Shown piece by piece: positions 23,343 to 57,915 of a DNA stretch of 64,000 nucleotides (the stretch's first letter is position 1; every line of letters starts with the position of its first letter). Under the pieces are notes generated by a model. It was not told the DNA's origin. It saw only the letters and a program-made list of their open reading frames with translations, and ran no database searches. Source of the DNA: Raillietiella orientalis (lineage: Eukaryota); assembly GCA_036172245.1 (NCBI GenBank), contig JAYWIR010000016.1, positions 806,001 to 870,000 on the forward strand, read 5' to 3'. Made by a program: the position numbers and the translations under genes.

Positions 23343-26300
23343 ACCGCAGCTATTGGATGAAACGAGGAGAGGAAGAGCTTCAGCATGCCCTGAATATCCT
23401 GAAAACCAAAGACCCTGTTGCAAAGAATGTTATAGTTTTTGTTGGTGATGGTATGGGCATAACCGTTTCAGCAGCAGCACGCATCCTCAAAGGACAATTG
23501 CAAGGCGAAACAGGAGAGGAAGGAAAACTCTTTTTTGAAAATTTTCCTCATGTTGCTCTAAGCAAAGTAAGTGCTTTTTTTTTTTCTTTTTCTTTTTTGT
23601 GCATCTGTGTCAATGTTTTCCTTGGATTGCTTTTTTTTCTTTTTTGCATCTTGACCTTTCGTCTTAGCAGCTCCCAGCATGTCTTTCTTGATTGGGCTCC
23701 AGAGGTTCAACACTAAGGAGAGTCCTTAAGCGTGTAACAAAAAAAGATACTAAACAGGAAATCAGTGGAATGTCGCCGCCGGCGAAGAGATCCTCGTCTT
23801 TACGCCTGCATTTTGCCCTCAAGAAATTCTAATTCGGAAGAAACAGTTCCCCCGTACACACGGATGTTCCCAGCGCAAAGATTTCGTATCTCCGGCATCC
23901 ATCGGCTCATTTATTCCGTTCTTCTCGCGCCATGTGCGGCGCACACTTCAGCGAGGCCTGCGGTTATACAGACCACTGTCGGTGACTTATCAGATAGCGT
24001 AATAAGCATTTTCAGTAGTCCTTCGAAATGCGTTTCCCGTGACCTGAAGATGAGCCGAAGGCATGAGAGGTTAAAAGCTTCGCACGGCTTCGACAGGGAA
24101 GTGGTACTCGACCTGGCGTGTGCAAATCAAGTGCGCTCTGCTTGACCATTCATGAGGGATGCTTTCTGCTGCACTCAGCAGTACTCGAATGGTGGAGCAA
24201 TTAAGCAATGTATCGGTCCGTGGATATGCAGCTCTGACGGAGAAGGGGCTCTAATAAATGTAGCGTTAAATAGACAGGAAGATTGGGACCGGATATCGCT
24301 AGATGTGTGTGTCGGTTTCCTAGAACTTTCGAACCAGTTCCTCAGGCATCTCGCAGTCCAGTCGGATGAAATGCACCCTCGCTTATCTTCCTTGGATGCG
24401 TACCATAATTGCAGTTCACAACGGCGTGTAAAAGCGCTTCGCGAACGCCTCCGAAACGCTGTTCGAAGTACAGAGTGGTTCACGGCGGGAAAAGGAAGGG
24501 AAGGGAGGGGATCGGAAAAGGGAATCTCAGAAGGAAAAAAAAAAAAAAAGATTTCTGAAAGATGTCGGTTTCGAAGCTTTCCTCGATTGCAATGTTTCGT
24601 GTTGGCGACACCACAACCACGGTATTTATGAGAAGCTCTTATTTTAATTGGTTGTAATTGTGTTTGGGCGTCACATCCCGCGATGACACGGAGATAGCCG
24701 TATCTTGGAGACTATCTTGCCAGATCTGTATTTCTCTTAACCAGTTCTTCACAGATGCCCACGTGATGCTGTGAAATCTAAATGTGCACGTTCATTTCAG
24801 ACGTACTGCATTGATAGACAGGTCCCGGACTCTGCATGCACGGCCACGGCACTCTTCAGTGGAGTAAAAAATAATTTTTATACACTTGGAGTAGATAATT
24901 CAGTGATCATAGAGAATTGTGAAACACTGCTTAACCAAAAGATCCCGTTATCATCGATGGCCAAGTGGGCCCAGGAAGCCCAGAAGGAAACTGGTTAATA
25001 AGTCTATTTGCCATTTGCTTTGCACTTAATCTGAGTGTGTGTGGTTGCCTCATCCCTTCAGCAATTCCATCCCTCCCCTCTTCCCCCCACTTTAAATTCG
25101 CATTGATGAATGTAAATCTCAAGACACCTTTTTGTGAGAATCAAATGGGAAAGATCGTTGTTTCGCATGCATACATGTTTATCTTGATATGTGTCCAAAA
25201 CTTTGGGGCTTTACCGGTATCTAATCAGAGCTTCCTAATAGCGAACAGAAACTCTGCGTTTCTGTAGTTCTGCGTGTGATTCTCTCTGCGAAGGAAATAG
25301 GAAAGTGGGTCTGTTCCTATCTCTTACCGTCCCTAATCCTTCCCGCCATAATCCTTTTGCAGTTTTTTTTTTTTTTTTTTTCGTCCTGTGACATGATAAC
25401 CGCCGTGGTATTCTTCATTCGAGAAGCAGTAGTTTTTATGGAGGAAAATACATGATAGTAGATGCTTGTATCAGTCAAACGCGCGAATATCCATATGTCA
25501 TATATGCGGAGCCAAAAGGTACAGAGGAAAAAAGGTCAATGACGGGAGGTGTGAATCCACAAAGCTTCATTCGATGCGGCACAGATGGCACTGCATAACG
25601 TGGGGTCGCTCGCTCGCTGCCGCGGAGAAGCAGTCACTCGCACGCGCTGCCGAGGCGTAGGTTGCGTGCTCGCGCGCTCGCCCGTCTATCGGGCGCTTCT
25701 CCAAACGCCCCCTCCGAAATCGCGGTTTCGGAAACTTCAATCCTCCGAACTCCTGCACCGAATCTGCTCCTCTGCTTGGGTTCCAGTTTCCGGGTGCAGG
25801 CATCGGGTCTGCTGCATCGGCTGACCTCGGGCCGTCCGTTCATCGAGCGCACGATCTGAGATCCTGTTGGACCTGATGCTCCCGTCGTCGAAGAGCATTG
25901 CTGAAACAGGACGCTCCCCCTTTCCTCCTCCTCCGCTGGAGATGAGAAAAATAGATTGCTTCCCGCCCAGCCTACGGTCGCCGTTGCGGACGAGGCGCGG
26001 GAACTGCACCCAGGACGAATCCTTTGCTCCTCCGGTGTCGTTCTGGGGTTCCTCCTTTGATGTCAGCCGTATCAGCAGGCTGTCCCCCCCCCCTCCCGAA
26101 GCCCCCCAGGCAGAACTTTTCTGCGGATGTCCCGAATCGGGCGTTTCGCTGGCATCCTCAGCCCCCCTCTCTTGTCTGGCACCACGCACCTTTTCGGAAA
26201 ATTCCTGCGGAGATTTCCAGTGGGCGGAGTGTTCGAGTTGTACGAATCATGGGGAATCCTCCCTCTCCCCCCCCCCCACGCGCACCAGGCGACCTGGGCA

Positions 26301-29300
26301 TCTCGCTCTCCTTTTCATTTTTCATGTTTTCTTTTTTTTTTTTGACGCTTATTCCCGAATCCTGTCGGTCCCTGATCTGCTGCTGGAAAAAAAAACAGAA
26401 AATGAAAAAGAAAAAAGAAGTGCAGTTGGCCACCCTGCGTGACACCAGCCAGATTTGGGGGGATCTCGCGCAAACCCTCACGCCGTGCACCAACGCGCTC
26501 CGCGTGATCCCGAGACTTTCGTGTCCCCGCGATCCGCAGTGCCCCATTTCTTCGGTGGCGCTTCGGAAGTTTTTTGAACTCAAATCCTCGGTCCCGCCTC
26601 CACAGCTTCTCATGCTTCCCGGGAAACGCGCGTCCGCGTCGACGGCTCCGTCCTTCCCGGACCTCTTCCGCCGTGATCGCCGTGATTTTTCGTGCGTCTT
26701 CCCCCCCCCCCCCCCCCCCACCAGCCACTTCTTGCGCGTCCAGCCGCGAAGTCCTGCTGTCTCCCGAGCATCCCGATGCGCCGCGGGCATCCCCCCTTCC
26801 TTCTCCGAGATCGCTTGGCACAGAAGAGAGTGACGTGGAGATTCTGCTAGGTGTCGTCACCACCACGCGGATAAGCCACGCAACACCTGCCTCCCTCTAC
26901 GCTCACGCGAGCACCAGGAATTGGGAGTGCTACACCAACGATCAACGGTGCAAGGACATTTCCCTGCAGCTAATCGAGGAGTCTCCGGGAAGGGACTTCA
27001 AGGTGAGGAGGGAGGCGGGCGCCCCCGGAGACGTAACCTTTCTTCCCACCAGGTGATCTTCGGCGGAGGCCTGCAGACCTTCCTGCCTGCCGACGACACA
27101 GGGAGCACGGACAACAACACTTGTAGGCGGCAGGATTCCAGGAATCTCCTGGATGAATGGAAGAACAGCATGCAGCGCAGGAATCTCAGCCACGCCTTCC
27201 TGAGCAACCAGGAGGAGCTGAGGCTCCTCGACGTGACCCAAACCGACACGATCATGGGTGAGTCCTTCCCTCGCTTTCGGGCGACGTGGGGGATCGGGGA
27301 GAGCAGGTCTGTTTGCTCCCGGGCACCTGCCCTACCACCTGGACAGGAAGGAGGACGAACCTGCTCCTCTGCTCCACGAGATGGTCGAGAAAGCGGTGCA
27401 GCGCCTGGCGAAGAGCGATAGCGGTTTTCTGCTGATGGTAAGGTCTCCCCCTCCCCCTCCCCTCCCGTCCGCCTCCTGATTGCTGGCCAACACGCGTATG
27501 CTCCCCTCCCTCCCGTCCAGGTAGAGGGAGGGCACATCGACCGGGCCCTGCACGAAAACAAGGCCAAAAAGGCCCTGGTCGAATTGCTGGAATTCGACAA
27601 GGCGATCGAGGTAGCGTACAATTTGACCGATCCGAAAGACACGCTAATCATAGTGACGGCCGACCACTCCCACACACTCACCATGAGTGGGTACCCGGTC
27701 AGAGGAAATGACATCTTGGGTAAGTGGTAGGGACTGGTCTTCCTCCTGGAGAGGGGTGGGGATGAGCACCCGCGACGCTGCACGCTTGGGGAATTCTCCC
27801 TCCCTCCTGCGCGTGCTCTTTGTGTGTCCGTGGTACCCTGAAGTGCTGAGGTGCGCAGAGGCGGCGGCGCTCTCCTCTGGAGGGTCTCGTGTGGGTGCAA
27901 GGGGGGGAGGACGCTGCCCTACGACCCCCCTCATCCGATCCCTGCGAGTAGAGATCAGGAGGAAACACTGCAGCAGGAAACACTGACTGAGGAGTTTCCT
28001 CCTGAACAATCGCAGCTCGAGGGAAACTCTGCAAGCAGAGTTTCCTTTGAGCTGGGGCGATTCCAATTGAGCAGCAGAGGCCGTTCTAGGACGAAGAACC
28101 GACCTTGGTATCGCACCACGGAGAGTCAGGGGTTCTCCCGGAGGAAGAACTTCCCAGGTAGGAAAGGATGGAGAAGAAACGATTTCGGAAGATGAGAGGA
28201 GAACGGGGGCGGGTGCTCCGCAAAACCATTGGGCAGAATCAGGGTCTGAGGGAGCGACCGAGCTGGCGGCCGCTGGCTGCTGCGGTCTCCGTGCTCCGTA
28301 CCAAGCGTCGCCGGTTCGAGTGTGGTGAAGAAGCGCGCCAATCCCTTCGGAGAAACCGGGAAGCATCCCTTCGGGGTTCGCTTCAGAGAAGGAGGAAACA
28401 GGGAGCGGTTCCCTTGCAGGTTCCCTCCTCAGAAGAAACGGATGGCTCCCTTCGGAAAGGGCAAAGAAGAGGGCTTTCCCTTGCGGGTTCCCTAACAAAC
28501 ATTAGAGGAACGGACTCCTTCCTCCAGAGCTCTTCCCGGATTCAAAGGGTGGACCCTCCGGAATCACCCTCCAACTTGAAGAATCGTCTGGGCGAACGCC
28601 TCTTCTCGCGGCTGCGCTGTCCTCTGCCGCCATCTCCGCGTTCGGCCCTCTCCCATAGGGGCATCGAGTGCGTGCGGTCGCGCGCGCGCGCACCGGGGGA
28701 ACTCCCAAGAGGTGCGCGGATGACAACCGCGCAAAGAAATGGCATCAACAGAGGGAGCCAGGCGAGATCCAGAAAGAGTGGGAGGGAGACCTCGGAGTTC
28801 CTCTCAGGAATGCCCATTGCCACCTTCGTGGGCAGGGCCGAGGGTGCTCGTCCAGCAAACGGGTTCAAGACCACGAGGGAAGGGATGGAGAGCGGAGTCG
28901 AGAGAGCTTCCCGACGCCTACGGAGGCCCTTCTTCCTCTGTATCTGGGATGGCCCCGGATGCCACCCGTGACCTGGTTGCCACGTTTCTCTAGAAGGGCT
29001 CGTCCTTCGTGACGCAGATGCGAGGTTTCCGGAAGTCTCCCGTGCTGAACTTCCTGCCGCCCGCGTCGCGCAACAGCGAATCCTTCGAACGGCCGATGGA
29101 GACAGAGAGGGACACCGCAAGGAATCGACCCCGGTCCGCGAGGGACGCTGCCTCGGCAGGAGTGGCGCGAGTTGTCAGCTGCCGACCCTCGGCGGCCAGG
29201 GCTGAGACCAAGGGGATGCAGGACTGGTGTGACCTTTCCCTTGCAACGCCCTCGAGGAAGTTTGTTTCGGCGGAGAGGAACGGCTGCGCCGCGACAAACT

Positions 29301-32300
29301 TTAGAGCTCGAGGAATCGCGGTCGTGGTCTCCAGGCGGTAGCAGCGTCGTGCCCTCGGCGTCCGCACGCGATCGGGCTGCCCTCCGCGATCGCAGCTTTC
29401 AGAAGGACGCTGAGGAAGCTCTAAAGCGCTTCACGTGAAAAGGGGTTTCCGTTGCAACCGGTCAACGGGAGGGGAGCGCGCTTCGGATGCGTGTGTTCCG
29501 TCGACCGCATCTGCCACCTGATAGTGGAGGCATCTGCGTGACGCTGCTTCCATCGATCTTCAAATGAGAAGCCAAACATGCCGATCCTGTGACCATCATC
29601 AGCATGCGCGAAAGGTCTAGCCGTGCTTTGCGAGCACCGGCGGGAGCATCTCAGCTTCCCGTGTCTTCTTACCTCCTATAAGGAATTGCCAGGGCGCCCC
29701 CTGGGATACATCGTCTTGGCATTTTTTTCTTTGCCTTTCGGCAGTCGCCCTGCAGTGCTGGGTTTTTTTTTTTTTGGAAGGGGGGGAGTCGCTGTTGAGG
29801 CTTTGAGCTTTCGAGATGCTCGACGGCCGCTTTGCCTCTTCCGAGGGAGCACACGCAAGAGTCTTTGGTTGGACCCCCATCTGGAGGGACACCCCGGAGC
29901 ATGGGGCGAGAGCCGGTAAGGCGACATGGAATGTGCCAAACGGACGAGGCCTGTCTCTCTTGGAGAACCATGGTGACGGCTGGCGGATGGCACGGGATTT
30001 CGAAGGTGTCCCTCCCCCCCTGAGCGCTGCCCCGCCAGAGGGGGATCCAACCAAGGACTCTTGCGCGGCCTTCAGTGCCTTTCGGATGCAAAATCAAACT
30101 GTCGCGGAGCAGCTCGGCGGCACAGCCAATGCATTTTCCGGGGCTGCAAAGATCATTAGGAAATTGCGTCCCGTCGGTTCGGAGGTGTGGCCTTCGGGCA
30201 GAAGGCGCGCGGCGAAGCTGGGTCGAAGGCTTCCGGACCGCTGACCCTCGACGGCCAGAGGGAGGGACGGGCGCTTTTTTCCCGAGCCGACACTCCCTAC
30301 CGGCTCGGGAAAAAAGAGGTCGCCCCTTCTCTCCCTGCTTTTCTCCCTCCTCCTCCTCCCTTCTCCTTCAGGAGCGCCTTGCCCGCATGTCTACTCTTCC
30401 CGTCGGACCGACACTCCCCTACCATCTCTTGGAGACAATCCCCCCTTCCTCCCCCCTTCCTTTTCCTCGTCTCTCGAAGAGTGGATTTGCGAACCGGCAC
30501 TTCCGCCAACGCAATCGGTGCGGAATTCGAGAAAGCCAGCAAAACGCCAGAAAGTAGGGACTGTTGACCATATTTCGGTTTCCCTTGGCGCTTGAGCAGT
30601 AGGGGCGAACCGCTGTCCGCGGCCTGCTGGCGGGCAGGTTCTCTCATGCATTTCAAGACGAAACCCCCGTTCGCTGCCCTCTTCCATCCCACTTTCCCAC
30701 GGGAAAGACGTTTAGTCGGTCTTCAGCTAGGGTGGCAGCACCAGCACGCGTCCGCAGACTGTCCTCAGTCTTCAGGAGAATCAGAAAGGAGATGAAGATT
30801 TCGGATGACAGTGCTTACTCCTCCCCTCCCCTTCCCAATTCGTCATTGCGTTGCCTCCTGCCCTCCGTCTCCTCCAGCTTCGAAGCCACCAGGAATGTTC
30901 CCAATACGATGGCAGCGAATCCGATTCCCGGAAGCAGGAGGATTCCCGCGCTCGGTATCATCGGTGCCTTCCTCCTCCGCGGAGAGGCCTGCGCGTCTTC
31001 TTAGCCCGGGCCGCAGAGGCGCGCCGGAATCTCCCACGGGCTGCCCGAATCGTTTCGAGCCGGCGAGGCACCCGCACGTGGCCTGGGAAACTTTTCGGTA
31101 GATACCTGAGCATTTCCCCACCCCCGAGGCGCTTGACTGACACTGAGTCCGAATTCCTGCGGATGCTGTGCCGCCTCGAGGTCCAGTCCGCGCCGATCAT
31201 CAGCAGCATCTCTTTCCGGAGCCGGACGGGAGGCGACGATCCAGTTTGCCGGGCTTCCGATCGCATCAGCGGTGGAGAAGGGTGGCAGGGGATTCCGGAA
31301 AGACGTGAGAACTCCCGGTTGAACCGGGCAGTTTGGGCTTGGAAGGGGGAAGGGGGGGGGGGGACTGGCACATTCGGCGTCTCCCGTTTCTCGGAACGCG
31401 TTCCGCTATGGCATCTCTTTGTGATCGATCGCAAAGCTCCCCAATCTCCTCCCCATCCCGATTGGCCACCCAATACCTCTGGAGCGTTTGTTGCTATCGA
31501 AGGGGCACACGGCAGGCGGAGCGGAACGCCACGTCATTCGCGAGACAAGGATTGCGGAAGGGGGGGGAGCGCCGATGTCTGGAAGGGCCGGCTGCTGCTG
31601 CTGCTGCTGCTGCTGCTGTTTGCATTCGCATAGCGAATAAACAAATCCAAGGATGCAGGGTGCCTCATGGGTGGGCCGCAGGCCATCCTTTTGGCAGCCC
31701 TGCATCTCCGCGCCACATACGGTGTGTGAGCGATGAGTGCGCAACCATGAGCGTCCCCGCCCTCCTCCCAAGCATTCCTCCTGCTTAGAAAACGGGGTCG
31801 ACTTGAGGGAGGTCCAGGCGGGAACGTAGTCAGCACCTCGAGGGCACGGGCTCCTGCTCCCGGCAGCGGCGATGGCCGAAGGAGCGATTGAACGCTGGAA
31901 GCGGTGGCGAGGAGGGTTCCAGGGGACTCCGGCGCGGGCCAGAGGAGTCACCAGGTCGCAGGCGTGGGAGTGGCTTCCCCAAGTGGGGCTCGGGAGGCGT
32001 TCCGTACGTTTCGGGCTTCCGCGGCTCGTAGGAGTCCTTCCCCCCATCCTTCCATCTACCGGAGGGAGGAGAGAGAGACGTGTACCGATGACCTCGTTGC
32101 AGGAATCGCCGAAAACTCGCCGGTGGACAATCTCCCGTACACCACGCTCAGCTTCGCCAACGGGGTGGGCTTCCAGTACTCGGTGGTGAATGGCAGGGTG
32201 GTCCGCCGCAACCTCAGCACCGTGGACGTGACTGACAAGGACTATGTCCAACAGGCAGCCGTCCCCAGGGAGAACCACGACGAGACCCACGGAGGGGAGG

Positions 32301-32619
32301 ACGTGGCCATCTACGCGTCAGGTGAGGAGGTCGGCAGGTGGTCGGCAGCGCGCGCGCGAAGGTTGTGGCGACGAACGGGTGAAACGTGCCCCCAGGACCC
32401 TGGTCGTCCCTTTTCCATACCCTCCACGAGCAGAGCTACGTGGCGCACGTCATCGCGTACGCGTCGTGCATTGGGCCGCGCAGGCACGCGTGCGCGGCCG
32501 ACGTCGGCGACGTGTCCCCGGCGGTCGACACCGATGCAGCCGCTTCCACCTCCGCCTCACTGGACCCGCGCCTCTGGGCGCCGTTGATCCTGGCGATCCT
32601 CTTCCTTTGGCTGAGATGA
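23343..32619 (+). CDS. Alp: Alkaline phosphatase, membrane-bound (GPI-anchored type); first coding exon(s) not firmly located
   Basis: Phase-compatible GT-AG exons 23343-23566, 24801-24993, 26851-27002, 27053-27257, 27307-27437, 27521-27719, 32103-32321 and 32396-32619 give ~514 aa. Motifs: [12 protein letters not shown], catalytic Ser [47 protein letters not shown]. The hydrophobic C-terminus ([15 protein letters not shown]) resembles a GPI signal. Confidence 0.96.
28008..28062. repeat. Short near-perfect hairpin
   Basis: cagctcgagggaaactctgc-aa-gcagagtttcctttgagctg; the two mismatches are G-U pairs on the + strand. Confidence 0.85.
29841..30085. repeat. Long imperfect inverted repeat in the large alkaline phosphatase intron
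   Basis: 29854-29884 matches the reverse complement of 30035-30065 at 28/31. Further arms: ggagggacacc/ggtgtccctcc and ccgagggagcac/gtgcctttcgg. Confidence 0.85.
31591..31618. repeat. (GCT)9 microsatellite, intronic
   Basis: Read directly from the sequence. Confidence 0.9.
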
Positions 32620-35352
32620 AACCGGAGAGCTCCCGAGACGGAGGGAGGAGAAGAGGGGAAGGGGGAAAAGCATCGCCGACTCCGTCCATCCCCCTCCCGG
32701 TTCTCGGTTTTCGGATGTGCGGACGGTGCCTTCGGAAAAAGGAGACGGGAGGATAGGAAGGAGGAAGGAAGGACTCGAAAAAAAGGAAAGGAAAACCAGT
32801 GCGGGAAGGGGATCTGCTCCCGATCCCCTTACAAAAATAAAAATGAAAAAAAAAAAAAAAGTGTTCATTGTTGCCATGCGGGCTTCCAGGGACACGATCT
32901 GGAAAACCGTTCCAAGTCAGCTCGGGCGTCAAGAGAGTCTCGAGGCTCCCCCTCAGAGGCGGCAGAGACCCTTGGCCCGCAGCTAGGGAAGGGCCCGCAC
33001 GGCGGGCGAGGAATCCTTCCCCCCTCCAGTACAGGAGCAAGATCGACCTCGGAAAGGCGGGGTTCGCCATCCGAGATCGCCCGGCTACGAGATGCCGAGC
33101 TCTCCACTTCCCGAGAGGACGCCAGAGGACCACCGGGACCCTTCCCGGGAATATCTGGCACCCTCCTGAGGTGGACGCCCCTTTTGGAACGAGTGGGAGG
33201 GTTGGGTGCGGGGCGAGTTGGCAGAGGCCGGCTGCAGCTGGAGTTGGGCTTCCTCCCCGGCGTATCTTTCGGCCAGGATGCAGCCTCATCCCTTGCTGCC
33301 TCCCCCTCTCAGGACTTCCGGTTCTCCTGCCCCGAACGGCTTCGCCGTCGAGACGGTGGACGACAAAAAGGGAGGCCCCTTTCTTCCCTTTCCCTCTTCC
33401 CTTCCTTTTTTCCCCCTCGTGAGTGGAGACCCACCTCGGGCTGAGCTCCTCCGGGAACCCTTTCTGCCCACCCGCTCTCGGCAAGTCCGTAATGGTCCAG
33501 GGCGCGCAGAGGCGGCCTCATCTTCCATCGCAGCTCCTCCCCGCATCCCCGGAAGGCTACACCCAGGAGGCCGAAAGCGACCTCGCAGCGTTCTATACCT
33601 CCGCACGTGGATGAAGAGTCCTCCGAAGCCGGGTGAGGAGGAATCCTCCGCGGGGGATGGGAGCAGCCATGCTCGAGGGCCAGGGAGGGGACTGGAGGAG
33701 GAGGGAGGGAAAGACTACCTGGCTGCTCGCGGTGGGGATGCAGAGGAGGGAAGGAAGAGACGCGATGGCTCCAGCAGCAGGTGATTTTTGCGGCACGGGG
33801 TGGCTCAGGAACGAGGTAGGTAGGCGTACCCGGAGCGGGACGTAAACGGGCATCCGGGAGAGTCCAGGTCTCCTCCCGCGTTCCCCGTCTCGTCGGGCTT
33901 ATTGCGGCTGTCTCCGTTTCCTTCGAATTTCTGTCCCGCCCTCCCTGAAGGCGGCGTTGCTACTGAAGGGGGCATAGTGGCGAGTGTTTGTAAGGGAGCG
34001 CGCGCGCATCCCCCTCACTGCCCCGGCTCGGGGAGGAGGGCGAAGTAAGAAAAGGGCAGCTCGCTGCCCTTGGCCCCTCCTCTCCCGCTCTCTCCTCCTC
34101 TCCGTTCCCCACATACACACATCCCGTTGGCCGTTCCCCACTTCCCAATCTCTTCCTGGGCTTCGGGACAGATGGGATTTACGTGCGGAGGGAGGGGGAG
34201 GGGTTCGGAGAGAACCAGAAAGGGGTCCTGGGCCGCCGAAGCTTTAAGTCAAAGTGGTGCTTCTCACATCCCTCGGGTGTTTCTGCAGGGAGGAGGGAGG
34301 AGAGGAGTGTGTGTGCTGCGGAGTCGAATCTTCGCCTGCCGAGGGATGCGCGTCGACTAGGTTGGACCTATCTTGCCTGCGAGATGCGAGAGCGGGTCCG
34401 AAACAGCAGGGAATCCCATGGGCGGAGGGAAGGAACGAGATTGGGATGAGGGCTGCGGCTCCAGCCGCAGATGCTGCTGCGGAAGCCGCCGCCAAGAGAC
34501 GAGGAAAAGGGGTCGGGGATCCGAAGGTAAGGGTAGACTTGCGGGCGCGGATATACTGAAGAAGGGAGGAGAAAGGGGAGGGAAAGAAGCAGCAGTCCTG
34601 TCCGTACATCCTTCTCTCCGCGTCCATTTCCACAGAAACGGCGTGCTCTACCTACTGGAGCGCTGACAACGGGCAGCCCTCCCGAGCACGGCGTTTTTTT
34701 TTTTTGTTTCTTTTTTTTTTAAAAAAAAAAAGGTGGAAGAGAGTGGGGAGCCCTAAGCAGGAGGGATGATGCAGTAAGAGAGAGGATTATTATTTTTGGA
34801 CCTATGGAAATGTGGGAGGAAGGGGAGGACTCCCGGAATCCGCAGCTGCCGAAAGGTGAGCGGAAGGAAGGAAGCGCGCCGCGCGCGGAAGCTGCAGCCG
34901 TTCTCGTACCCACAAGTTGCCTGGGAATCTCTTTGAACGCTTCTCGGCCTTTTGGCTAAGATCAAAGGGAGGAATGGATACTCAGGGGGTCCAGAGCTGG
35001 AAGGGTCAGGTGGCTGACGGTGGATGGAACTAGGAAAAGTGGTCTTGCAGCAACGCCTACGATTCCTCCAGGGTCCACGGTGGGTGCACGCGTTTGGTGT
35101 GCTCCTCTCCCCTCCGCTACCAGTCCCAGTCCCTTTGTCCAGAAAGCAGGAGAGGCATCCGCAACGACCCTGGAGCCCATGTGGCAGCAGTGCATGCTAG
35201 TGGGTGGCGCACGCTCAGGTGGAGACTCGCCACACCCTCCCTTCCTTCCCTCGTTCGAGGCCATTGCCTTAAGGTGGTTCTCCCATACCGCCCATCCAGA
35301 GAAACCAGCTCCACTTACCGGGGAGAAGAGAGGGAGAAGGAGAAGAGGTATG

Positions 35353-38300
35353 GAGCCAGTTTTTACTGCAGAGACGTCTTCGGGAACGCCTAGGCGGAAG
35401 CCGAATCGTAGCAGGGGGCGCGGCCCTGGCTCCACCCAGCCCTTGGTTCCGGAAGTCTGGCGGCTGCCAAGAGGCGTTACGGGAGCGCATAGAGGGAGGT
35501 TCGGATCCTCCGCTCAAAGCAGGGGGGCGGAAATCCTGCTGTCTCCGTTCGAGCAGCCTCGAAGCGGAGGGAGCTGGCAGGAGGTGACTGAGAGCTCCCC
35601 TGGGGAGACCACCGTCGACTCTAGAGGGAAGGGTGGAGGGGAAAGTCGTCTTGGAAGCTGCTCGGGCGGCGAGACGACTGAAAGAGACATCTTGCCCCCA
35701 CACTTCCTCTCCCGCGTCATCGACCTGTGGGAAAGAACCACCTCCGACCTGAGGGCAAAATCCACTTCCCTCCCACACGCAAACTTCACTGGTTATGAGG
35801 ACGCCTTCCGAGATCACATGCACATCACTCCCCCCTTTCCACACTCGTGCTTGCAGGCGGTTGCAAGTCCCGAAACGCCCTGACTGGGACAACAGAAGCA
35901 CTCGTCGGGTTCGGGAAGGCAGCGCCCCCCTCCGCCCCTCATGCGTTGTTCAAGCGGGCGGCTAGCGGCCGCACTAAAGCACTCCAGGGCCCACAAACAG
36001 GGGCTTCTGAAGTGCGTGGTTCCTCCTTGTCCCCTCTTCTGTGGGTGCGCAGCCTCGACCCCAGGAAGGAACTGGCAGGCAACATGGAGCCAACCATCGA
36101 GCAGTGAGCAAGGGCAGGGATGGATAAGCCATCCTTCACTCTCCCCCCTGTGAGGGAGAGAAGGGGGGGAGTAGAAGGTTGAGAGGATCTGCCACCCAGT
36201 GGATGAGGCGCCAACCGGCTTCAGCGGAAAGGCAACCGCTAAAGAGGAAGGAGGAGGGGTAGGACGTTTCCCTCGGTCCCTACCTCCCAAGCAACTCCCC
36301 TCGGTTTTCCCCCGTGATCGTCAAAGAAACAAATTGTATTTGCATGCTTCATGAAGCTGTTCGAGGGTCGCCCGGAAGAGAGAGAAGGGCAGGGGAAGAA
36401 GAGGGAGTAGCCTTTTCAGGCATCCTCATAGAATTTGTACATCCTGCCGTCCAAAGTTTCCAGGAAGACGAAGTTTTCGTCGCGGCATCCTTCCTCCGGG
36501 TAGGTGACCATCTCGGAACTTCCCTTGGCGTCGCACGTCCTCTTGATGATGACGCACGTGTCCAACATGCGGACGAGGCACAGCATCATCACCTGGAAGA
36601 TGTAGATCGCATCCATCCCTTCCACATCCCGCTTCTGAGAGGGGAAGGAGGTAGGGAGTCTTCCCATGGCCCTCCCTGCTAACTCCCGGTTCTTCTCCCT
36701 CTCCCGAGACTCGGGAGGAGGCGGGAGACGGGAAGGAACGCCTCTCCGAAAAGAATGTCTCCCTCTGTCCGGTTCCTCCCTGTAATGCGTGCGGGAAGGA
36801 GGAGTGCCCCGGTCCTTCCTTCTTTGACCCGTCCTCGCCAGAGCTTGCCGAGAGGCGTCTCGAGGCCGGCAGCAGCGACGGTCAGCGCAGTGTCAGAGCA
36901 AGCAACGACCACCGCCCTCTCCCCTTGCATACCCTCTGCTCACTTGAACTGTTGCCCGTTTCTTGAGGAGGGACCCGCCCACACTTCAACTTCACTCCTG
37001 CGGGAGGTTACGTTGGCCACCCTACATTTCCCTCACCTTCGGGGTCATCCCAGGGACACCCTGCTCTCCCGAACTTCCCGCAGAGACGGATCCTCCACCT
37101 CCGTTCACCCTTCCTGCCTCCTTTCTAGCTGCCGGATCCCGTGCAGGAATGCTGCCCGCCCCCAGGGGAGAGGGACGAGAAGAAAAGGGAGGAAAAGGGA
37201 GGAGAAAGGGGGTTTGCTGAGGGTGGTGGGGGAGAAAGGGGGAGGTGAAGGAGTGGGAATCCACCGAACGTCTACCCACCCCCAACTCCTCTTTTCCTTC
37301 CCGCTCCCACAGGGGGACGAGTGCAGGAAGCCGATCGGAAACAAGGAGGCAGCTCCTGCGCGCGGACGCCTCCTCTCCCCCCTCTGCAAACCTCCACCCG
37401 CGTGGGGAATGGACGGGAGGAATTCCCTTTTCGTCTTTCCCGCGACTCCCCCTTTGTAAGGAGTCAGGGCGCTTACGTCGTCCACTTTCACGACCTGTAC
37501 CGTACTGTTGTGGATCCACGTGATGTGGTTGAGACGGTTCATGATCCACCTCAAGGGGGTCCTGTTATCCACGTCGCCGAAGAGTTCCTTCCAGAGCTTC
37601 GCGTTGGGGCCGTAGCCATCGTTCACCTTCATCCAGTAGTATTGCCTCATCACGTACGACAGCATCTGCAGCTTCAGCCCCTCACAGATCATTGTCCCGA
37701 AGCGCTGGTTGCTCTCCAGCGCCTCGACGACGAACCTCTCTCTGAACTGCTCGGGCACCTTCCGGGTCCTCTTCACCTGGAAGGGGAAAGGAGCGGCCGG
37801 GAAGCGCGTCCGAGGAGCCGATGTCTCCCTTACGAACAGCTTGAGAGCGCACAGACAGCCACGCATCCAGGCGACGCGATCCTCCAGGTCCTCCCCGAAC
37901 TCCTCCTCGTCCAGCGGGGGGTTCAGCCGCCAGATACCCAGCATGTCCCATTTCCCGAATTCGTTGAACACCTCCTCGTACTCCTTTCTCGGGGAGAAGA
38001 GGTCGCCCTCGAAGTGGACGAGGTTCTTCAGGACCACACCGGCCAGAACGGCCTTGAGCACGGCATACCCGTTCGGTCCGAAGAGGACTTTGTGCCGTGG
38101 AAATGGGACGTAGCCACTGACCACCAGCGATTGTACCATCTCCAGGAAGTCGGCAATTTCGCATTGCTGGTCGTCGCTTCCTCCTAGCGGCAGGGAACTA
38201 AAAGTTCACGCGTGCGAGATGGGTGCCAACTCCTTTCCCCTCGTTCCCTCCGCCTTCAAAGACGGGCGAAAGCACCCGGTTGCCCACCTTCCGCGCACGG

Positions 38301-41300
38301 CGAAGTACCATCGAAGAGACCCCGACCCGAGGATATTCCGCGCGAAAGAGCGAGACAAAACGAAAACGAAGATCGGCGGTCCTGTAGAAACGGTCGAAAC
38401 GCTCCACTCGCATTGACCGGGGAAGACAAGGGAGGAAGGAGGAAGGCTTCTGGTCTCGTGAGGACGCGCCCGCTCACTCGGAGGCTGAGCGCTCGCGAAG
38501 TCATCGCAGTAACTCAAGCCAGCAAAGGCTCGTGCAAGATGCAAGCTCCCAGCCCTGACCCCACGCGCACCCGCGCGGTCGCGCTCGCAACTCACTGTGC
38601 GCTCAAACACGCGGGTGCACGTTTCCCTCACGAGTGCAGGTGAGTAGGGGAACAGGCGGGACCGGGAGCGCTTTCCCCTGCTTCTCTACTTTTCGCAGCA
38701 GTTGTGGCTGCGGGGACCAAGGCGCTCATGGGGCCGAGGGAGGTGGGGTCAGCCACCGGCCGCCACTGCGCCTGCTGCGGCGGTGCCTCTTGGCTCGCAG
38801 CAGTTCTCTCGCCCCTACCCCAAAACGCCTAGCCCAGGGGCCGCCTTTCTCTCCATTCGGTCTCCGAGGCGACCAGCTTCCGGAGCCTCGACCATGGCTT
38901 AGCGGACGGATTGCGGAGACTTTTTCGGCACGCGCCGCATGGACGGAGGTGCACGCCGCAGTGTCTTTCCGCGCGACGCCGGAGTGTGCGTCGGCGGACT
39001 CCGGCGTCGGCGGAAAGATACTGTTGGGGGTAGGGGAGGGGGGCAGCCGGAGGAGGAGAAAGCGTTCCGCTTTTCCTCCTCCGTCCTCCCTCGTCTCTCG
39101 CAAAAGCGGTCGACCTGCAAGGGAAAACGTGTCCTCCCCTGGAGGCATTTTTTCTCGAGGTGCCGTGTTGGGCGCGAGGGGAGGTGTCAGGCAGGGTGGC
39201 ATCCCGAGTTGCCTCATGGGAGACTTTCGAAAAGGGGGAAGGGAGGTAGCATCCACCTCGTCCGCCTTCCCCTCTCCTCTCTCCAGCATCCGCCAACGAA
39301 TCAGCACGCTCCCGTCTCCCGCGAGAGCAGCTTCCCTTTTCCTCCCGAGGAGCTGGGACGTGCTACCCTTCCTTCCCTTCCTTAGGCCTCGAGACTCCCG
39401 CGGAGAACGCGGGCACCTCAGCCTCTCAGCTTTCCGACCATGCTTCTCTAGACGTCTGTCCCGATACCGGTTGATCGCTGAGGTCGCTCCCTGGATGGGT
39501 TCTTTCCTTCCTCTCGCCTTTTTGCGCCTTCCCCCTTTCTCTGCCGGACCTCCTCCATGAACTTCTGCATCCGATTATCCCCTTTTTCCCCTCCATCCAC
39601 GATGCGCTTTAGAGGAGTCAGCGTGTTGCCGTTAGCGACCACAGGTTGTTGCGAGTCGCACCGGAAGCGGACTTTGGGAACGCTTCTCCGGGGACGATTA
39701 GTGGGTTTCTGCTTTCTTCTCCCGAGGATTTGGAAAGGAAGGAAGAAAAAGTCCCCTTTCCTCCCACCCTCTTACTTTGCAGATCGGACTGCGGCCGAGA
39801 TAACTGCAGGACGGAGGGTCAAAGACAAGTGGCGCTCGACGAGGAGCGCCGAAGGGAGCGCCTGCCGCAGCCCGCGGACCGAATCCTCCGCCGTGCTCGT
39901 TGCTCTGGCACGCGCACATCGCGGCGGCGGTGTTCGTCCTCCTGCGGCTCCCGGCATGATTCTGGCTGGAGGGAGGGGAACACGTGATAGGCTAGCGCGC
40001 TAGTGGCGCTTCACGCGGGAGGAGCTGCTTGCGTACCCTTTAGGCAGATGTTCCTCCACTCGCCTCCAAGCAGAGACACGCGGACGCCGATCCCTATGCA
40101 AGGGCAAGAGGAAGCGCCATTTTACCACTCACCTATCCGGGAAAGCTAAGAAAGGATGCAGCACGAGCGGTGGCAGAGGCAGCAGCAACATTGGAAGATG
40201 AGGTCGTCTAGAAAAACGCTTGGGGGGGCTTGGAAGCCAAGTGTGGGGGCCGGAGGCCAAAGAAACTGTCAAAGGAATCGGTCGGTCGCATGCACCTTCG
40301 CTGGGTATGCGCCAAGAGAGGTCGTCACTTCAAGCGGATCCCCTCCGTGCTCCAGGCGTACTGACCTTCTAATGAAGCTTCCCAGCCTGCCGACGAGGCC
40401 GAAAAGATTTTGGTAGAAACTGGACATTTTCGGAATCAGGTATCAGAAGAAGGGAAGGAAAGGTCAGAGAGCTTTGTTGAGCTTGAAACAACTAAAGGGA
40501 AAAGGTGTAAGTTTGCACACAAACACGCAAAAATGAAGTCGTTCTCATGACAACAAGATTTTTCAGGAAGGCGAGCCGGACTGGACACGGAAACCACACT
40601 GATTCCCATTCCGTACCTACGCCGGACGGTTCTGGAGCCATGACCTACGTTTTCCCCAGTCCGACATGCTGTGTGCTGAATTTATCTTCTACTTTCGTTC
40701 ATGCAAGTGTTGGTCAATGTCACTGGTTTTCACTTTCAAAGTTGGTCTTCGGGCATCCAGTCGATGAGTTTGCGTGGGTAATTCACTCACATGACAAGGC
40801 TCCTGAGTCCTTTGCAGGATGTAACAGTACGTCCAAGCGGGAATGCGTCCACAACTTCCGATGCCGATTTCCCTTTTAACTACACTTTTCAGTATTTCAA
40901 CAGCCGGCACACTGTGGATTCCGGTCCTCCTTTTTGCCCTTCTTACCACGCTGCTCGTGATAAACAGGGCGATCGTGATGCGGACCATCGGGTTGTATCG
41001 AGGAACGTTGCCGTTCCCTTCAAACATCCCTGCCAGGATCTCCATCTTGTCCGTCCTCTGCAGGCCTTGGCCCAGTCCCGGCGCAGCGTCCTGGCAGGTG
41101 AGCACGTGGGGTTGCGTTTCCTTGGCTCCACAGGCCTTGCATATCTCTTCTTGCGCGTCCCCTGACCAGTGTCTCGCCCCCGTGCCGCTCAGGATGCCTC
41201 CGTGATAAAACAGCAGGTGGTCACCTTCAGTGTCGGGTGGTAGATCGCTCGTCCAGACCGTGGTCCCAACCTCCAGCAGGTTCATCTGTCGGCGCCCGTA

Positions 41301-41715
41301 GCGGCTGACGGCCACAGACAGAGCGTCGTCCTCGTCGGGATTCTTCTTCGCTGCTTCTCGGATGTTTCGTCTGGTGATCAGGCGCCAGCATTCGGATTCC
41401 TAATTTCTGCAGAGCTCTCGATCTTTGTGGGTAAATCTTTCTATCGTTTTCTTGGTGGGGTGGATCAGTCGCATTTTCTGGCGATCGTCACTGGTTTCAA
41501 ACTGCTCGCAGTCCTTGATGGTCCTGTTTGGCCTGTCGAACATCCACCTTCTGGTGTCCCAAGGGACGCTCAGGAAGCATGGGATGATCTTTGCCAGTTC
41601 GTGCCGGCGCTATTTTGAGTTCGTGGGTGTTCCCCAGTGCTTGCTTGCGCTTCCAAGCGGGATCGATGCTTCGCCACTGTCCTTGTTTGCCTATTAGGGT
41701 GGACATCAGACCTCT
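35353..41715. repeat. Segmental duplication, copy 1 (~6.4 kb)
   Basis: Colinear near-identity with 48073-54436 (offset 12720-12721); the ORF track gives paired, near-identical translations. Confidence 0.97.
36416..38183 (-). CDS. OTULIN/FAM105 (peptidase C101)-like protein with catalytic residues replaced, copy 1; 5' exons unresolved
   Basis: Exons 38183-37834, 37776-37477 and 36634-36416 have canonical, in-phase splice sites. Colinear matches to human OTULIN as recalled: GYAVLKAVL~NYCALRATL, ICEGLKLQML~LYEAVKFLML, LFGDVDNRTPLRWIMNRLN~LFARDTSNDPGQLLRNHLN, and gapless QVMMLCL..R..TYP..D..VFL..DGRMYK~QVEMFLL..R..VYP..D..VTL..DDRHYN. Confidence 0.8.
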
Positions 41716-42795
41716 GGAATATCGAGCAACTGCGAGTAGGCTTTATGCGCTGCATAGGGCCACTCGTCCCATTTGTCGGCACGATCCAGGATTTGTCGCA
41801 CGTCCTGCAGATCCATGGATTGCTCGTACGATTTGATCCCGGTCCCGCCCTTGTCTCGCGGTCGGCACAACAGTTTTAGTCTGACCTTCGTCTTTAACTC
41901 TTTCCATAGCATTTTTCTCTGCAGTTGTTCCACCTGGTTGCTCGTCCGCTCGTTTAGTCGGCAGGAGGCCGCTCTGAGGAGCTCCTTGGGAAGGAGGACT
42001 CCGTTCCACAGGTTTGCCCTCTGCTTTCAGGCAAAAGTCCAGTTGGACGTATTTTGCAGCCTCTTCTCTCGTTTTCCCCAGGATTTCTTCCCACATGTGC
42101 TGCGAAGCCGAGGCGTCGCCGATGTGGATTCCCCAGTACTTGATGCCGTCCACTACTTGGAATCCAGTCTCCGTTACGGCGGACCGGTGGAGGATTCCGA
42201 TGGGCAATAGCTGGGATTTCTGGGCGTTGATCTTCAAGCTTAGGCCTCTCTCCATGGACTTGACGACACCGAGGAACGCATGCTGGTCCCTCTCGTCCTT
42301 CAGGAAGAAGAGGAGATCGTCCGCATGCTCCAGTTGCGTTAGTTTGTCGTCGTCTAGCCTTAGTCCTTGCAGACGGCCGCCACAATGCGCCAGTGACGAA
42401 ACCGCCTGCATGCACACCACGAACAGCATCGGACTACGGGCGTCTCCTTTGAGGATTGTCCTCTCCATCCGGAAGACTGCCGTGTCTTGCCCGTTGATGG
42501 TTATCCTGCAGTACTGTCCTTCGAGATTCTTCAGCATGTAGTCGCCGAAGTATTCCGGGTAGACCAGCTTCCTCAAAATCTTCAGTAGGATTCCATGTTG
42601 CACGGTATCGAACGCCTCCTCCATATCTGTGCATCCAGCACCAGGTTGTCGCCGATGTAGCGACTGTTACCTATGGTCGCCTGGGCACACTTCACGTTGT
42701 CAGACATGCTGCATCCGGGCACCGCGCAAGTCTGCATTGGAGAGATGACGGATGAGAGCGTCTTGCTTAAGCAGTTGGCCCAGATCTTGGCCAAC
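40500..42795 (-). mobile_element. L1/Tx1-like ORF2 (RT plus Zn finger), downstream part of element A; frameshifted pseudogene
   Basis: AKIWANCLSKTLSSVISPMQ, DMEEAFDTVQH, LKGDARSPMLF, HADDLLFF, LKINAQKS, IKYWGI, RPRDKGGTG, CKACGAKETQPHVLTC. Confidence 0.92.
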
Positions 42796-44875
42796 CTGCG
42801 TTTCTTTTTGCAACTGCCACGTGTACGGTATTTCCGTTCGCAGGGGCATCAGGCAGGGCGACAGTTTAAGCCCGTTGCTCTTCAGCATCTTTGAGCTGGT
42901 GCTGAGGGTGTACAGGCTGACGCTGGAGTACCTGCCTAGCTCTTGCCCGTGAACGCCTGCCGTGGCTGCCTATGCAGATGACCTGCTTCTTCTGCTCCCC
43001 ATGTCCACCCCGGCGTCCAGTGCCGAAGATTTCTTCGAACTGATTCGTCGGGGACCGGGCGTGAGCGTGAACAGGAAGAAGAGCATGGTCGTTCCTGTGG
43101 GAGCGTCGTGGGAGGGGCAGTTCGACTGGATCCGCCTGGGAATCCCCACGGCAGGGTTCTTCAAGTACCTTGGCGTTCCGCTGGGCGACCTTGGAGCTGC
43201 CGAGGCGTGGTCGGACTGCCTTCATAAGGCAGAGTTGGCCGCCAGCCCGTTCATTAATGTTAAGTTTACCTTGCCGGAACGGGCGGCCATTTGGAATAAC
43301 TTCCTGGCCCTCCTCCTCCGACACCTGTTTTTTATCATGGACCCCCCCCTACGCGGCCAAAGAGCGGGCAAAACGCCTGCTAAGAAACGCTCTCTGGGGT
43401 CCGGCGCAATCCAGGATCCTCCTTAAAGACCTGACGGCTCCACGTCGGGATGCCGACCTTGGCACCCTGACGATGGAGCGGATTGGACTGCAACTGCAGT
43501 TCCGGATGCTAACACTGTGTGCCGAGCTTTGGGCTGCCCCGCTCTGTGCGCCTGCGCACATCCTCCTACGGAGGTGTGCCGGTAGTGAAGGACTTCTTTC
43601 CTTGGTTCCGGGCAGGCGCTACAGAAAACAGGGGTTTGGCTATCCTTTGAGGGCACTCGCCTCACTGCTGGAAGCCAATTCGTGAATTTCCTGCCGCCCA
43701 ATGAACTACAATGCTTGGCGGCAGAAATCTGTTGATTCTTGGGCTGCATTTCTGGAAATGAGTACCGATGATCTTCGCCCACTGCGTCAATTCCAACCTG
43801 GGTCACTCCAAGATGTGATGCAGGACGAGGTGAAGTTTTCCACCCTGGCCGCCACGCCCCTCGCCGAAGCGCTGTCTGCCCTCGAGGATAGAGAAGACAG
43901 TAGCCAACTTGCGAGTTGGGAGTTCTCCTGCACCATCGCAGGAAGAACGAAACTTCTCGGCGAATGGGACATGAGGGAGCTGGCGGATGCCTCCACTCGT
44001 GCTACGGCAAAGGGACTTCTTCGGTTGAGAGAAGCTCTTGGTGTTGCCCCCGATGAACTGATTGTTCCTCCCTGCTGTTTGTACAGTTCGGTGTTTCCCC
44101 TTGCATGCAAGCAAGACGTCTTTCTCTTCTTGCACTGGGGTTTCCGCCACAACGAGCGGCGGCGCCGAGTTTCTGGTGGGGTGGCTTCTCCCTACTGTGC
44201 CCGGTGCGGGGAGACGGAGTCGTTCCCGCACCTTGTTGTGGATTGCGGTACCTCCAGGAACTCTGGCGGACGTTGGCAACAGCACTCCTGTCACCGGGGG
44301 ACACCGCCCGAGAAGTGCTGCGACGGTTCTTCCAACCGCAAGGACTTTCGACGGCTGCGATGATTTCGACAGTTAGTTGCATCCGCGCCATCGTCATGGT
44401 CCGAGACGTGCTGGAGAACACATGTCAGCGATGATGTGTCATCAGGAAGGCAGCTGACTTCATCAGTGCGGCTGCTGGGTGGCGACTCTTTACCGAAAAT
44501 GAAACAGAGGAGCTCACCAGCATCCATGGTCGGATTACCTATGGTTTGGAACGTCGAACCCGGTGATCCACCTCCATTCCCATTCAATTTCATTTTTATT
44601 TTCGCGCTATACTTCCCATTCGCTCTGTAGTGCTTTTGGTACTCTTAGTCTTTGTGTTTTCCGGGGACTGCGGAGCGTCACCAAAGATCCCTGGCCCTTT
44701 CCTCCCATTTAGACTGTTCTTCTTTGTTTGTTGTCCCCCCCTAATCTACCACCCGTTCCTGACCTTCCGGTTTCCTGGCCTGCGTGCCAGTGGCGTATCT
44801 TCGTTGTAGGTTTTCTCGTAGTTGTCGGCTGGAAAGAACTGTTTCCAGATGGTTTATCAAAATAAACGTCCCGGC
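42796..44875 (+). mobile_element. Family X retrotransposon (element B), 5'-truncated, nested antisense in element A
   Basis: RRGIRQGDSLSPLLF, AYADDLLL, VNRKKS, FKYLGVP, CARCGETESFPHLVVDC; ends AATAAACGTCCCGGC. Confidence 0.92.
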
Positions 44876-48022: not shown

Positions 48023-48074
48023 CTCTTCCAAATCTTTAAACTTGCTTGCTCGATGTTCAGTGGAGAGATGATGA
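48023..48074 (+). repeat. 52-bp direct repeat at the left flank of duplication copy 2
   Basis: ctcttccaaatctttaaacttgcttgctcgatgttcagtggagagatgatga; 49/52 identical to 54449-54500. Confidence 0.9.
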
Positions 48075-49136
48075 GCCACTTTTTACTGCACAGACGGCTT
48101 CGGGAACGCCTAGGCACAAGCCGAATCGTAGAAGGGAGCGCGGCTCCGACGCCACCAAGCCCTTGGCTCCGGAAGTCTGGCGGCTGCCAAGAGGCGTTAC
48201 GGGAGCGCATAGAGGGAGGTTCGGATCCTCCGCTCAAAGCAGGGGGGCGGAAATCCTGCTGTCTCCGTTCGAGCAGCCTCGAAGCGGAGGGAGCTGGCAG
48301 GAGGTGACTGAGAGCTCCCCTGGGGAGACCACCGTCGACTCTAGAGGGAAGGGTGGAGGGGAAAGTCGTCTTGGAAGCTGCTCGGGCGGCGAGACGACTG
48401 AAAGAGACATCTTGCCCCCACACTTCCTCTCCCGCGTCATCGACCTGTGGGAAAGAACCACCTCCGACCTGAGGGCAAAATCCACTTCCCTCCCACACGC
48501 AAACTTCACTGGTTATGAGGACGCCTTCCGGGATCACATGCACATCACTCCCCCCTTTCCACCCTCGTGCTTGCAGGCGGTTGCAAGTCCCGAAACGCCC
48601 TGACTGGGACAACAGAAGCACTCGTCGGGTTCGGGAAGGCAGCGCCCCCCTCCGCCCCTCATGCGTTGTTCAAGCGGGCGGCTAGCGGCCGCACTGGAGC
48701 ACTCCAGGGCCCACAAACAGGGGCTTCTGAAGTGCGTGGTTCCTCCTTGTCCCCTCTTCTGTGGGTGCGCAGCCTCGACCCCAGGAAGGAACTGGCAGGC
48801 CACATGGAGCCAACCATCGAGCAGTGGGGCAAGGGCAGGGATGGATAAGCCATCCTTCACTCTCCCCCCTGTGAGGGAGAGAAGGGGGGGAGTAGAAGGT
48901 TGAGAGGATCTGCCACTCAATGGATGAGGCGCCAACCGGCTTCAGCGGAAAGGCAACCGCTAAAGAGGAAGGAGGAGAGGTAGGACGTTTCCCTCGGTCC
49001 CTACCTCCCAAGCAACTCCCCTCGGTTTTCCCCCGTGATCGTCAAAGAAACAAATTGTATTTGCATGCTTCATGAAGCTGTTCGAGGGTCGCCCGGAAGA
49101 GAGAGAAGGGCAGGGGAAGGGGAGGGAGTAGCCTTT

Positions 49137-53219: not shown

Positions 53220-54436
53220 GAAAAGGTGTAAGTTTGCACACAAACACGCAAAAATGAAGTCGTTCTCATGACAACAAGATTTTTCAGGAAGGCGAGCCGG
53301 ACTGGACACGGAAACCACACTGATTCCCATTCCGTACCTACGCCGGACGGTTCTGGAGCCATGACCTTCGTTTTCCCCAGTCCGACATGCTGTGTGCTGA
53401 ATTTATCTTCTACTTTCGTTCATGCAAGTGTTGGTCAATGTCATTGGTTTTCACTTTCAAAGTTGGTCTTCGGGCATCCAGTCGATGAGTTTGCGTGGGT
53501 AATTCACTCACATGACAAGGCTCCTGAGTCCTTTGCAGGATGTAACAGTACGTCCAAGCGGGAATGCGTCCACAACTTCCGATGCCGATTTCCCTTTTAA
53601 CTACACCTTTCAGTATTTCAACAGCCGGCACACTGTGGATTCCGGTCCTCCTTTTTGCCCTTCTTACCACGCTGCTCGTGATAAACAGGGCGATCGTGAT
53701 GCGGACCATCGGGTTGTATCGAGGAACGTTGCCGTTCCCTTCAAACATCCCTGCCAGGATCTCCATCTTGTCCGTCCTCTGCAGGCCTTGGCCCAGTCCC
53801 GGCGCAGCGTCCTGGCAGGTGAGCACGTGGGGTTGCGTTTCCTTGGCTCCACAGGCCTTGCATATCTCTTCTTGCGCGTCCCCTGACCAGTGTCTCGCCC
53901 CCGTGCCGCTCAGGATGCCTCCGTGATAAAACAGCAGGTGGTCACCTTCAGTGTCGGGTGGTAGATCGCTCGTCCAGACCGTGGTCCCAACCTCCAGCAG
54001 GTTCATCTGTCGGCGCCCGTAGCGGCTGACGGCCACAGACAGAGCGTCGTCCTCGTCGGGATTCTTCTTCGCTGCTTCTCGGATGTTTCGTCTGGTGATC
54101 AGGCGCCAGCATTCGGATTCCTGATTTCTGCAGAGCTCTCGATCTTTGTGGGTAAATCTTTCTATCGTTTTCTTGGTGGGGTGGATCAGTCGCATTTTCT
54201 GGCGATCGTCACTGGTTTCAAACTGCTCGCAGTCCTTGATGGTCCTGTTTGGCCTGTCGAACATCCACCTTCTGGTGTCCCAAGGGACGCTCAGGAAGCA
54301 TGGGATGATCTTTGCCAGTTCGTGCCGGCGCTATTTTGAGTTCGTGGGTGTTCCCCAGTGCTTGCTTGCGCTTCCAAGCGGGATCGATGCTTCGCCACTG
54401 TCCTTGTTTGCCTATTAGGGCGGACATCAGACCTCT
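53220..54436 (-). mobile_element. Duplicated 3' part of element A
   Basis: 284-aa ORF 53410-54264 with CKACGAKETQPHVLTC; near-identical to 40500-41715. Confidence 0.9.
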
Positions 54437-54448
54437 CGAACCTCAGAC

Positions 54449-54500
54449 CTCTTCCAAATCTTTAAACTTGCTAGCTCGATGTTGGGTGGAGAGATGATGA
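54449..54500 (+). repeat. 52-bp direct repeat at the right flank of duplication copy 2
   Basis: ctcttccaaatctttaaacttgctagctcgatgttgggtggagagatgatga; 49/52 identical to 48023-48074. Confidence 0.9.
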
Positions 54501-57829: not shown

Positions 57830-57915
57830 TATTGCAAGAATGCATGTTTCAATTATGAATTTATTTTATCCAAGTTGATAATAAAATAATCCTTGGGTTT
57901 ACAAAAACTGGATTA

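Follow-up and report, generated by a model that had tools for sequence, protein, structure and literature searches.

A duplicated three-exon gene of Raillietiella orientalis that probably encodes a highly diverged OTULIN/FAM105-family protein lacking the catalytic triad

The locus and the structure of the gene

The stretch of DNA analysed here (the window) comprises 64,000 nucleotides from Raillietiella orientalis (assembly GCA_036172245.1, contig JAYWIR010000016.1, positions 806,001 to 870,000 of the forward strand), and all coordinates below are positions within it. On its minus strand lies a three-exon gene for a protein of 274 residues, present in two nearby copies that we call copy A and copy B (Table 1). 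This gene probably encodes a very diverged member of the OTULIN/FAM105 family (Peptidase_C101) of ovarian tumour (OTU) deubiquitinases in which the catalytic cysteine, histidine and asparagine have been lost.

The three exons of copy A are joined at two phase 0 junctions. Exon 1 ends at 37834 with ...AAGCTGTTC and is directly followed by the intron 1 donor GTAAGG, while exon 2 ends at 37477 with ...GTGGACGAC, after which comes the intron 2 donor GTAAGC. Intron 1 has a length that is a multiple of three, contains no stop codon, and carries a pyrimidine run and CAG at its 3' end. Because this intron is in frame and stop-free, a stop-to-stop open reading frame (ORF) at 37105-38205 runs through exon 1, intron 1 and exon 2, and exon 3 appears as a small ORF of its own. 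A first-pass annotation of the window, made by a model from the letters alone, had proposed exactly such an arrangement, i.e., three in-phase exons hidden by a read-through 57-nt intron and a separate last ORF, and the sequence, the splice sites and a scan of codon-position composition all bear it out. The spliced frame of 102 + 100 + 72 = 274 codons is free of stops in both copies.

Long ORFs are frequent on both strands of this GC-rich window, so that ORF length alone says little and codon-position composition is decisive. Over the whole coding sequence of both copies, the G+C content (GC) at codon positions 1, 2 and 3 is 0.555, 0.321 and 0.843, respectively, and intron 2 has a GC of 0.62. 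When positions 33000-41000 were scanned in 30-codon windows for a GC excess of the third over the second codon position (GC3-GC2) of at least 0.40, the minus-strand signature appeared only over the three exons and was interrupted at the 57-nt intron. The three exons are thus those of a genuine eukaryotic gene with introns. When 38140-40700 was scanned more finely for 5' exons, no convincing coding signal came up, only one marginal window of 18 codons. We would like to note that an AG at 38185-38184 directly precedes 38183, the upstream limit chosen in the first-pass annotation, and that a short exon or an upstream start is possible there.

Table 1. Coordinates of the gene copies, the duplicated units, the PF16218 (Peptidase_C101) profile matches and the alkaline phosphatase pieces.
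Feature	Position	Strand	Details
Copy A, exon 1	37834-38139	-	102 codons, counted from the first in-frame ATG (38139); contains Ala26 (proposed Cys position); sequence and codon-position signature
Copy A, intron 1	37777-37833	-	57 nt, in frame, GTAAGG...TTCCAG
Copy A, exon 2	37477-37776	-	100 codons; PF16218 match
Copy A, intron 2	36635-37476	-	842 nt, GTAAGC...CTCTCAG; GC 0.62, no coding signature
Copy A, exon 3 and stop	36416-36634	-	72 codons (36634-36419), stop 36418-36416; contains Asp62, Met65 and Lys67
Copy B of the gene	49137-50860	-	exons 50860-50555, 50497-50198 and 49355-49140; stop 49139-49137; 274 codons, stop-free
Duplicated unit, copy A	35339-41719		6.4 kb, with the gene, its flanking DNA and the 3' portion of a non-LTR retroelement
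Duplicated unit, copy B	48062-54440		self-BLAST partner of 35339-41719
PF16218 match, exon 2 of copy A	query residues 16-86		profile positions 135-202 of 265; E 0.051, 13.4 bits
PF16218 match, exon 2 of copy B	query residues 14-86		profile positions 133-202 of 265; E 0.049, 13.5 bits
PF16218 match, exon 3 of copy B	query residues 14-67		profile positions 209-262 of 265; E 0.2, 11.5 bits
PF16218 match, exon 3 of copy A, 62-residue piece (36419-36604)	query residues 4-57		profile positions 209-262; E 0.19, 11.6 bits
PF16218 match, exon 3 of copy B, 62-residue piece	query residues 4-57		profile positions 209-262; E 0.15, 11.9 bits
Alkaline phosphatase pieces (PF00245)	~23420-23570, 26850-26980, 27050-27260, 32125-32330	+	Pfam matches

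A second copy within a 6.4-kb duplication

Copy B lies 12.7 kb from copy A and agrees with it in exon-intron structure and in splice sites, its 57-nt intron being kept with one difference. Both genes are part of a direct duplication whose two units align by self-BLAST at 97.65% identity over 6383 columns. The divergence between the units is mosaic, reaching ~9-15% near exon 1 and the upstream flank and ~11% at the border of exon 2 and intron 2 and staying at 0-3% elsewhere; the blocks of high divergence (~9-15%) are 37339-37538, 37939-38338 and 35339-35538. This pattern suggests either an older duplication that has largely been homogenised by gene conversion or a conversion of patches by a third copy at another place in the genome. 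At the protein level, the copies differ at 27 of the 274 residues, and the differences cluster within the first 25 residues and near an insertion discussed below, which hints at a variable interaction surface.

Directly upstream of copy A of the gene, and on the same strand, there is a retroelement without long terminal repeats (non-LTR; 40689-44400, minus strand, with the Pfam domain RVT_1 at 41743-42666). On the copy B side (53410-54440, minus strand), only the 3' part of this element is found, and the similarity stops within the element, at 54440. An origin of copy B by retrotransposition with 3' transduction was considered and rejected, as the 3' end of the duplicated unit has no poly(A). 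Just outside both ends of the copy B unit, at 54447-54495 and 48024-48072, there is a near-identical direct repeat of ~50 bp (TCATCATCTCTCCAC...AAGTTTAAAGATTTGGAAGAG in minus-strand reading, with few mismatches), which resembles a long target-site-type duplication or a junction left by recombination.

Matches to the OTULIN-family profile

The exon products were scanned singly against 24,736 Pfam families at E<=10, with 21 queries derived from the gene: 12 from exon 1, two from exon 2, six from exon 3, and one from the read-through of exons 1 and 2. Five of these queries matched any family at all, and in all five cases the family was PF16218, the Peptidase_C101 family of OTULIN (also FAM105B or Gumby) and FAM105; both exon 2 queries and three of the six exon 3 queries were among them. 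The matches are colinear across exons 2 and 3 in both copies of the gene, covering profile positions 133-202 and 209-262 of 265, and the end of the domain coincides with the C-terminus of the protein. The 6 positions that separate 202 from 209 in the profile are represented by 27 residues in the protein, with intron 2 lying inside this segment, so the insertion of ~20 residues described in the first-pass annotation is indeed present.

The first-pass annotation had further claimed kinship with OTULIN/FAM105 for the protein as a whole. This claim holds in part: exons 2 and 3 support it through colinear matches in both copies, all of them below threshold, whereas exon 1 has no match. No piece of the protein reached the Pfam gathering score for PF16218, which is 27 bits. 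The relationship was not seen in searches with whole pieces and emerged only when the exons were scanned one by one. Judging from the concordance of these sub-threshold matches, we consider it probable, though not proven, that exons 2 and 3 are homologous to the OTULIN family.

Residues at the catalytic positions

The catalytic triad of OTULIN consists of Cys129, His339 and Asn341, and an inhibitory Asp336 lies three residues before the histidine (PMC7862380). In the protein described here, residues 14-67 of exon 3 span 54 profile positions, and since the two lengths are equal, the alignment is presumably ungapped and would place three residues of exon 3, Asp62, Met65 and Lys67, opposite profile positions 257, 260 and 262, respectively. 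Their spacing is that of Asp336, His339 and Asn341 in OTULIN, with Asp62 likewise standing three residues before Met65. The profile position plus 79 is taken to give the residue number in human OTULIN, a presumed offset that was checked only against the residue numbers in PMC7862380. On this basis, we infer that Met65 and Lys67 occupy the positions of the catalytic His339 and Asn341, which agrees with the replacements of His by Met and of Asn by Lys in the first-pass annotation. The codons named there for the alanine at the proposed cysteine position (38062-38064, Ala26) and for the methionine (36440-36442, residue 65 of exon 3) are correct, and the lysine follows two residues after the methionine.

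In copy A, residues 1-94 are free of cysteine, which leaves nothing for the role of Cys129; in copy B, there is a cysteine at residue 10. Exon 3 contains no histidine. With no cysteine in residues 1-94 of copy A and no histidine in exon 3, a canonical papain-type triad is unavailable, and a replacement of the catalytic triad is likely.

Alternative explanations

Several results weigh against a functional relative of OTULIN, and they are given here together with the alternatives that they favor. One alternative, which we regard as unlikely, accepts the descent from OTULIN but holds that the gene is non-functional, i.e., a decaying duplicate or a passenger copied along with the neighboring retroelement, its frame being open only because the copies are young. 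The gene does lie directly downstream of the element on the same strand, and the duplicated unit includes both, but 274 open codons and four splice sites, intact in each of the copies, and a GC3 of 0.84, compared to a GC of 0.62 in the gene's own intron, would be unexpected for a gene that has long been dead. The ratio of non-synonymous to synonymous divergence (dN/dS) between the copies is 0.74 overall, and exons 2 and 3 differ by 13 non-synonymous changes and a single synonymous one, so that purifying selection on the protein is not demonstrated; nevertheless, in exon 1, the most diverged block, the proportion of non-synonymous differences (pN) is 0.070 and that of synonymous differences (pS) 0.135, a ratio of 0.49. 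Finally, while the lack of any relative in the databases searched is in keeping with a passenger, the gene's distance from all known OTULINs implies that the frame has been open for a long time.

A second alternative, which we likewise regard as unlikely, is that the protein is a lineage-specific orphan unrelated to OTU proteases and that it matches Peptidase_C101 by chance. All PF16218 matches, at 11.5-13.5 bits, fall short of the 27-bit cut-off, and they were obtained only after the protein had been cut into pieces for the 21 queries. At the same E<=10, no Pfam family was matched by the exon 3 pieces of copy A with 72, 71 (P0002) and 52 residues, by the read-through of exon 1, intron and exon 2 (P0001, 243 amino acids), or by any of the 12 queries from exon 1, where the Cys loop would be expected (all seven from copy A were empty). 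To these results we can add a control scan, at E<=1, of 150 further ORF fragments of the window, each 100 residues long and with antisense frames of the gene among them. Matches were found for 20 of the fragments, over 23 different families, one of them being a true alkaline phosphatase exon. Among the 149 non-genic fragments, seven (~5%) matched at E<=0.05, in line with the meaning of the E-value, and a single match at E=0.05 is therefore unremarkable; it is the concordance of the matches that bears the weight. In this respect the control differs from the gene, as none of the 150 fragments matched PF16218 and no family was matched by two fragments. For the gene, in contrast, a single family out of 24,736 is matched by two exons that do not overlap; these matches span 71 and 54 residues, are colinear and recur in both copies, with the end of the domain at the C-terminus of the protein. 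The chance of a second match to PF16218 is approximately 0.2/24,736, or ~1e-5 per family, before allowing for ~10 tries.

The wider searches are also on the side of an orphan. No OTU protein was found among PDB chains at E<=10 with phmmer and hmmsearch using P0001, exon 3 and a profile of the two paralogues, and the only matches that the PDB sequence search returned had E>0.2 and were driven by the peptide encoded by the intron. A phmmer search of 1.84 billion representatives yielded 0 matches, and a word-index search of a 5.8-billion collection yielded none at E<=0.01 for P0001 and none at E<=10 for the alignment of the gene. Pattern matches in metagenome contigs (597) and prokaryote genome contigs (384) were not confirmed by tblastn in any instance. 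In a protein language-model atlas, nothing usable was retrieved for the 221-residue piece of exons 1 and 2, and exon 2 retrieved only clusters of bacterial helix-turn-helix transposases with scores <=0.79, which is chance level. AlphaFold2 (AF2), run on the 221-residue read-through of exons 1 and 2 with an alignment of the two paralogues only, gave an unusable model, with a mean predicted local distance difference test score (pLDDT) of 36.7 and a predicted template modelling score (pTM) of 0.33; a complex prediction in which each of the three exon products formed a separate chain scored 0.00. At ordinary sequence-search sensitivity, then, the 274-residue protein is an orphan, and the similarity between it and OTULIN is too low for detection by phmmer. 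The gene's match to itself was absent as well, so the proteins of the Raillietiella orientalis genome are apparently not in the sequence collections that were searched.

The Cys-loop and C-terminal His motifs of the otubain OTUB1 can presumably be aligned to the same positions of the protein. Even so, kinship with another OTU branch such as the otubains (Peptidase_C65, PF10275), or an active enzyme with non-canonical catalytic residues, is very improbable, given that PF16218 was the only family matched at E<=10, with no match to Peptidase_C65 in the 21 Pfam queries and no PDB sequence match, that the canonical cysteine is expected early in the domain, where copy A has none, and that the C-terminal sheet region in exon 3 is without any histidine. 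OTUB1 is described as the OTU protein structurally closest to OTULIN (PMC3690481).

Comparison with OTULIN and FAM105A and a possible function

A descent from OTULIN would fit the dimensions of the protein, since the OTU domain of OTULIN extends over amino acids 80-352 (PMC3690481), a length similar to that of the 274 residues found here. At the N-terminus, the two proteins would differ. OTULIN carries a PUB-interacting motif (PIM) in which Tyr56 binds the PUB domain of HOIP, and our protein has no N-terminal extension for such a motif, its first ATG being at 38139 with no coding signature in 38140-40700, where a short upstream exon is possible. A count of lengths would put Met1 at about profile position 18-25, and helix alpha1 would then be absent; the protein seems to lack the first ~24 profile positions, with alpha1 as part of the proximal-ubiquitin (S1') site. 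OTULIN holds the proximal ubiquitin with its helices alpha1 and alpha2 (W96, T100-K102), and the S1' site underlies the specificity for Met1-linked chains (PMC3690481). The helical arm of OTULIN that contacts the distal ubiquitin (S1; amino acids 254-264), on the other hand, corresponds to the aligned part of exon 2.

The closest known parallel to the proposed protein is OTULINL (FAM105A), which has an OTULIN-family domain with a disrupted triad and likely a non-catalytic role (PMC7862380). FAM105A keeps histidine at two triad positions (Asp139/His350/His352), whereas in the protein described here all three residues would be replaced, and the region for the N-terminal membrane-localisation motif of FAM105A is not present. 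According to PMC7862380, FAM105A neither cleaves nor binds ubiquitin or LUBAC, the complex that assembles linear ubiquitin chains, whereas ubiquitin binding by FAM105A is cited in PMC5381560. The latter also states that OTULIN emerged in bilaterians and that FAM105A is its vertebrate whole-genome-duplication paralogue (ohnologue), inactivated within mammals. In a non-vertebrate host, the triad would thus have been lost independently of FAM105A.

Taken together, the two nearby copies probably encode a protein descended from the OTULIN/FAM105 branch of OTU deubiquitinases which, having lost the catalytic Cys, His and Asn, would be unable to cleave ubiquitin chains by a papain-type mechanism. If the protein is functional, it may serve in binding or as a scaffold without catalysis, as has been reported for vertebrate OTULINL/FAM105A, and a non-catalytic binding protein is our best guess. 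The idea that it acts as a binder or decoy of Met1-linked chains in NF-kB signalling is speculative, and the seeming lack of the alpha1/alpha2 region of the proximal-ubiquitin (S1') site is an obstacle to it.

A more far-reaching scenario, which we consider improbable, is that a non-vertebrate and possibly non-bilaterian lineage independently made a triad-less and N-terminally shortened OTULIN-fold family that now diversifies through duplication and patchwise gene conversion, the changes being concentrated around the former entrance of the active site. Diversification of that kind would suit a decoy that binds ubiquitin or effectors in a conflict between host and pathogen.

FAM105A, a vertebrate duplicate, is the only inactive paralogue of OTULIN described (PMC5381560); our gene, if it has indeed lost the triad, would be a second case in which all catalytic residues disappeared independently, here in a distant lineage, with a deubiquitinase fold recruited for non-catalytic work, and would offer a natural comparison for the surfaces that such pseudoenzymes retain.

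Neighboring features in the window

No Rfam match was found in the 64-kb window. An alkaline phosphatase gene with many exons and kilobase introns occupies ~23.4-32.4 kb of the plus strand, and among PDB sequences it is best matched by the shrimp enzymes 1K7H and 1SHN. An ARPC4 exon is located on the plus strand at 57262-57621 (~57346-57558) in an AT-rich stretch. Its identity to the best 120 of 701 matches (from molluscs, echinoderms, arthropods, a nemertean and Mortierella-type fungi) is 55-75%, values that suggest a divergent or unsampled host lineage with no close annotated relative. The invertebrate origin proposed in the first-pass annotation is plausible. The GC of the window shifts sharply at 56001-64000, falling from ~0.5-0.61 to 0.33-0.39.

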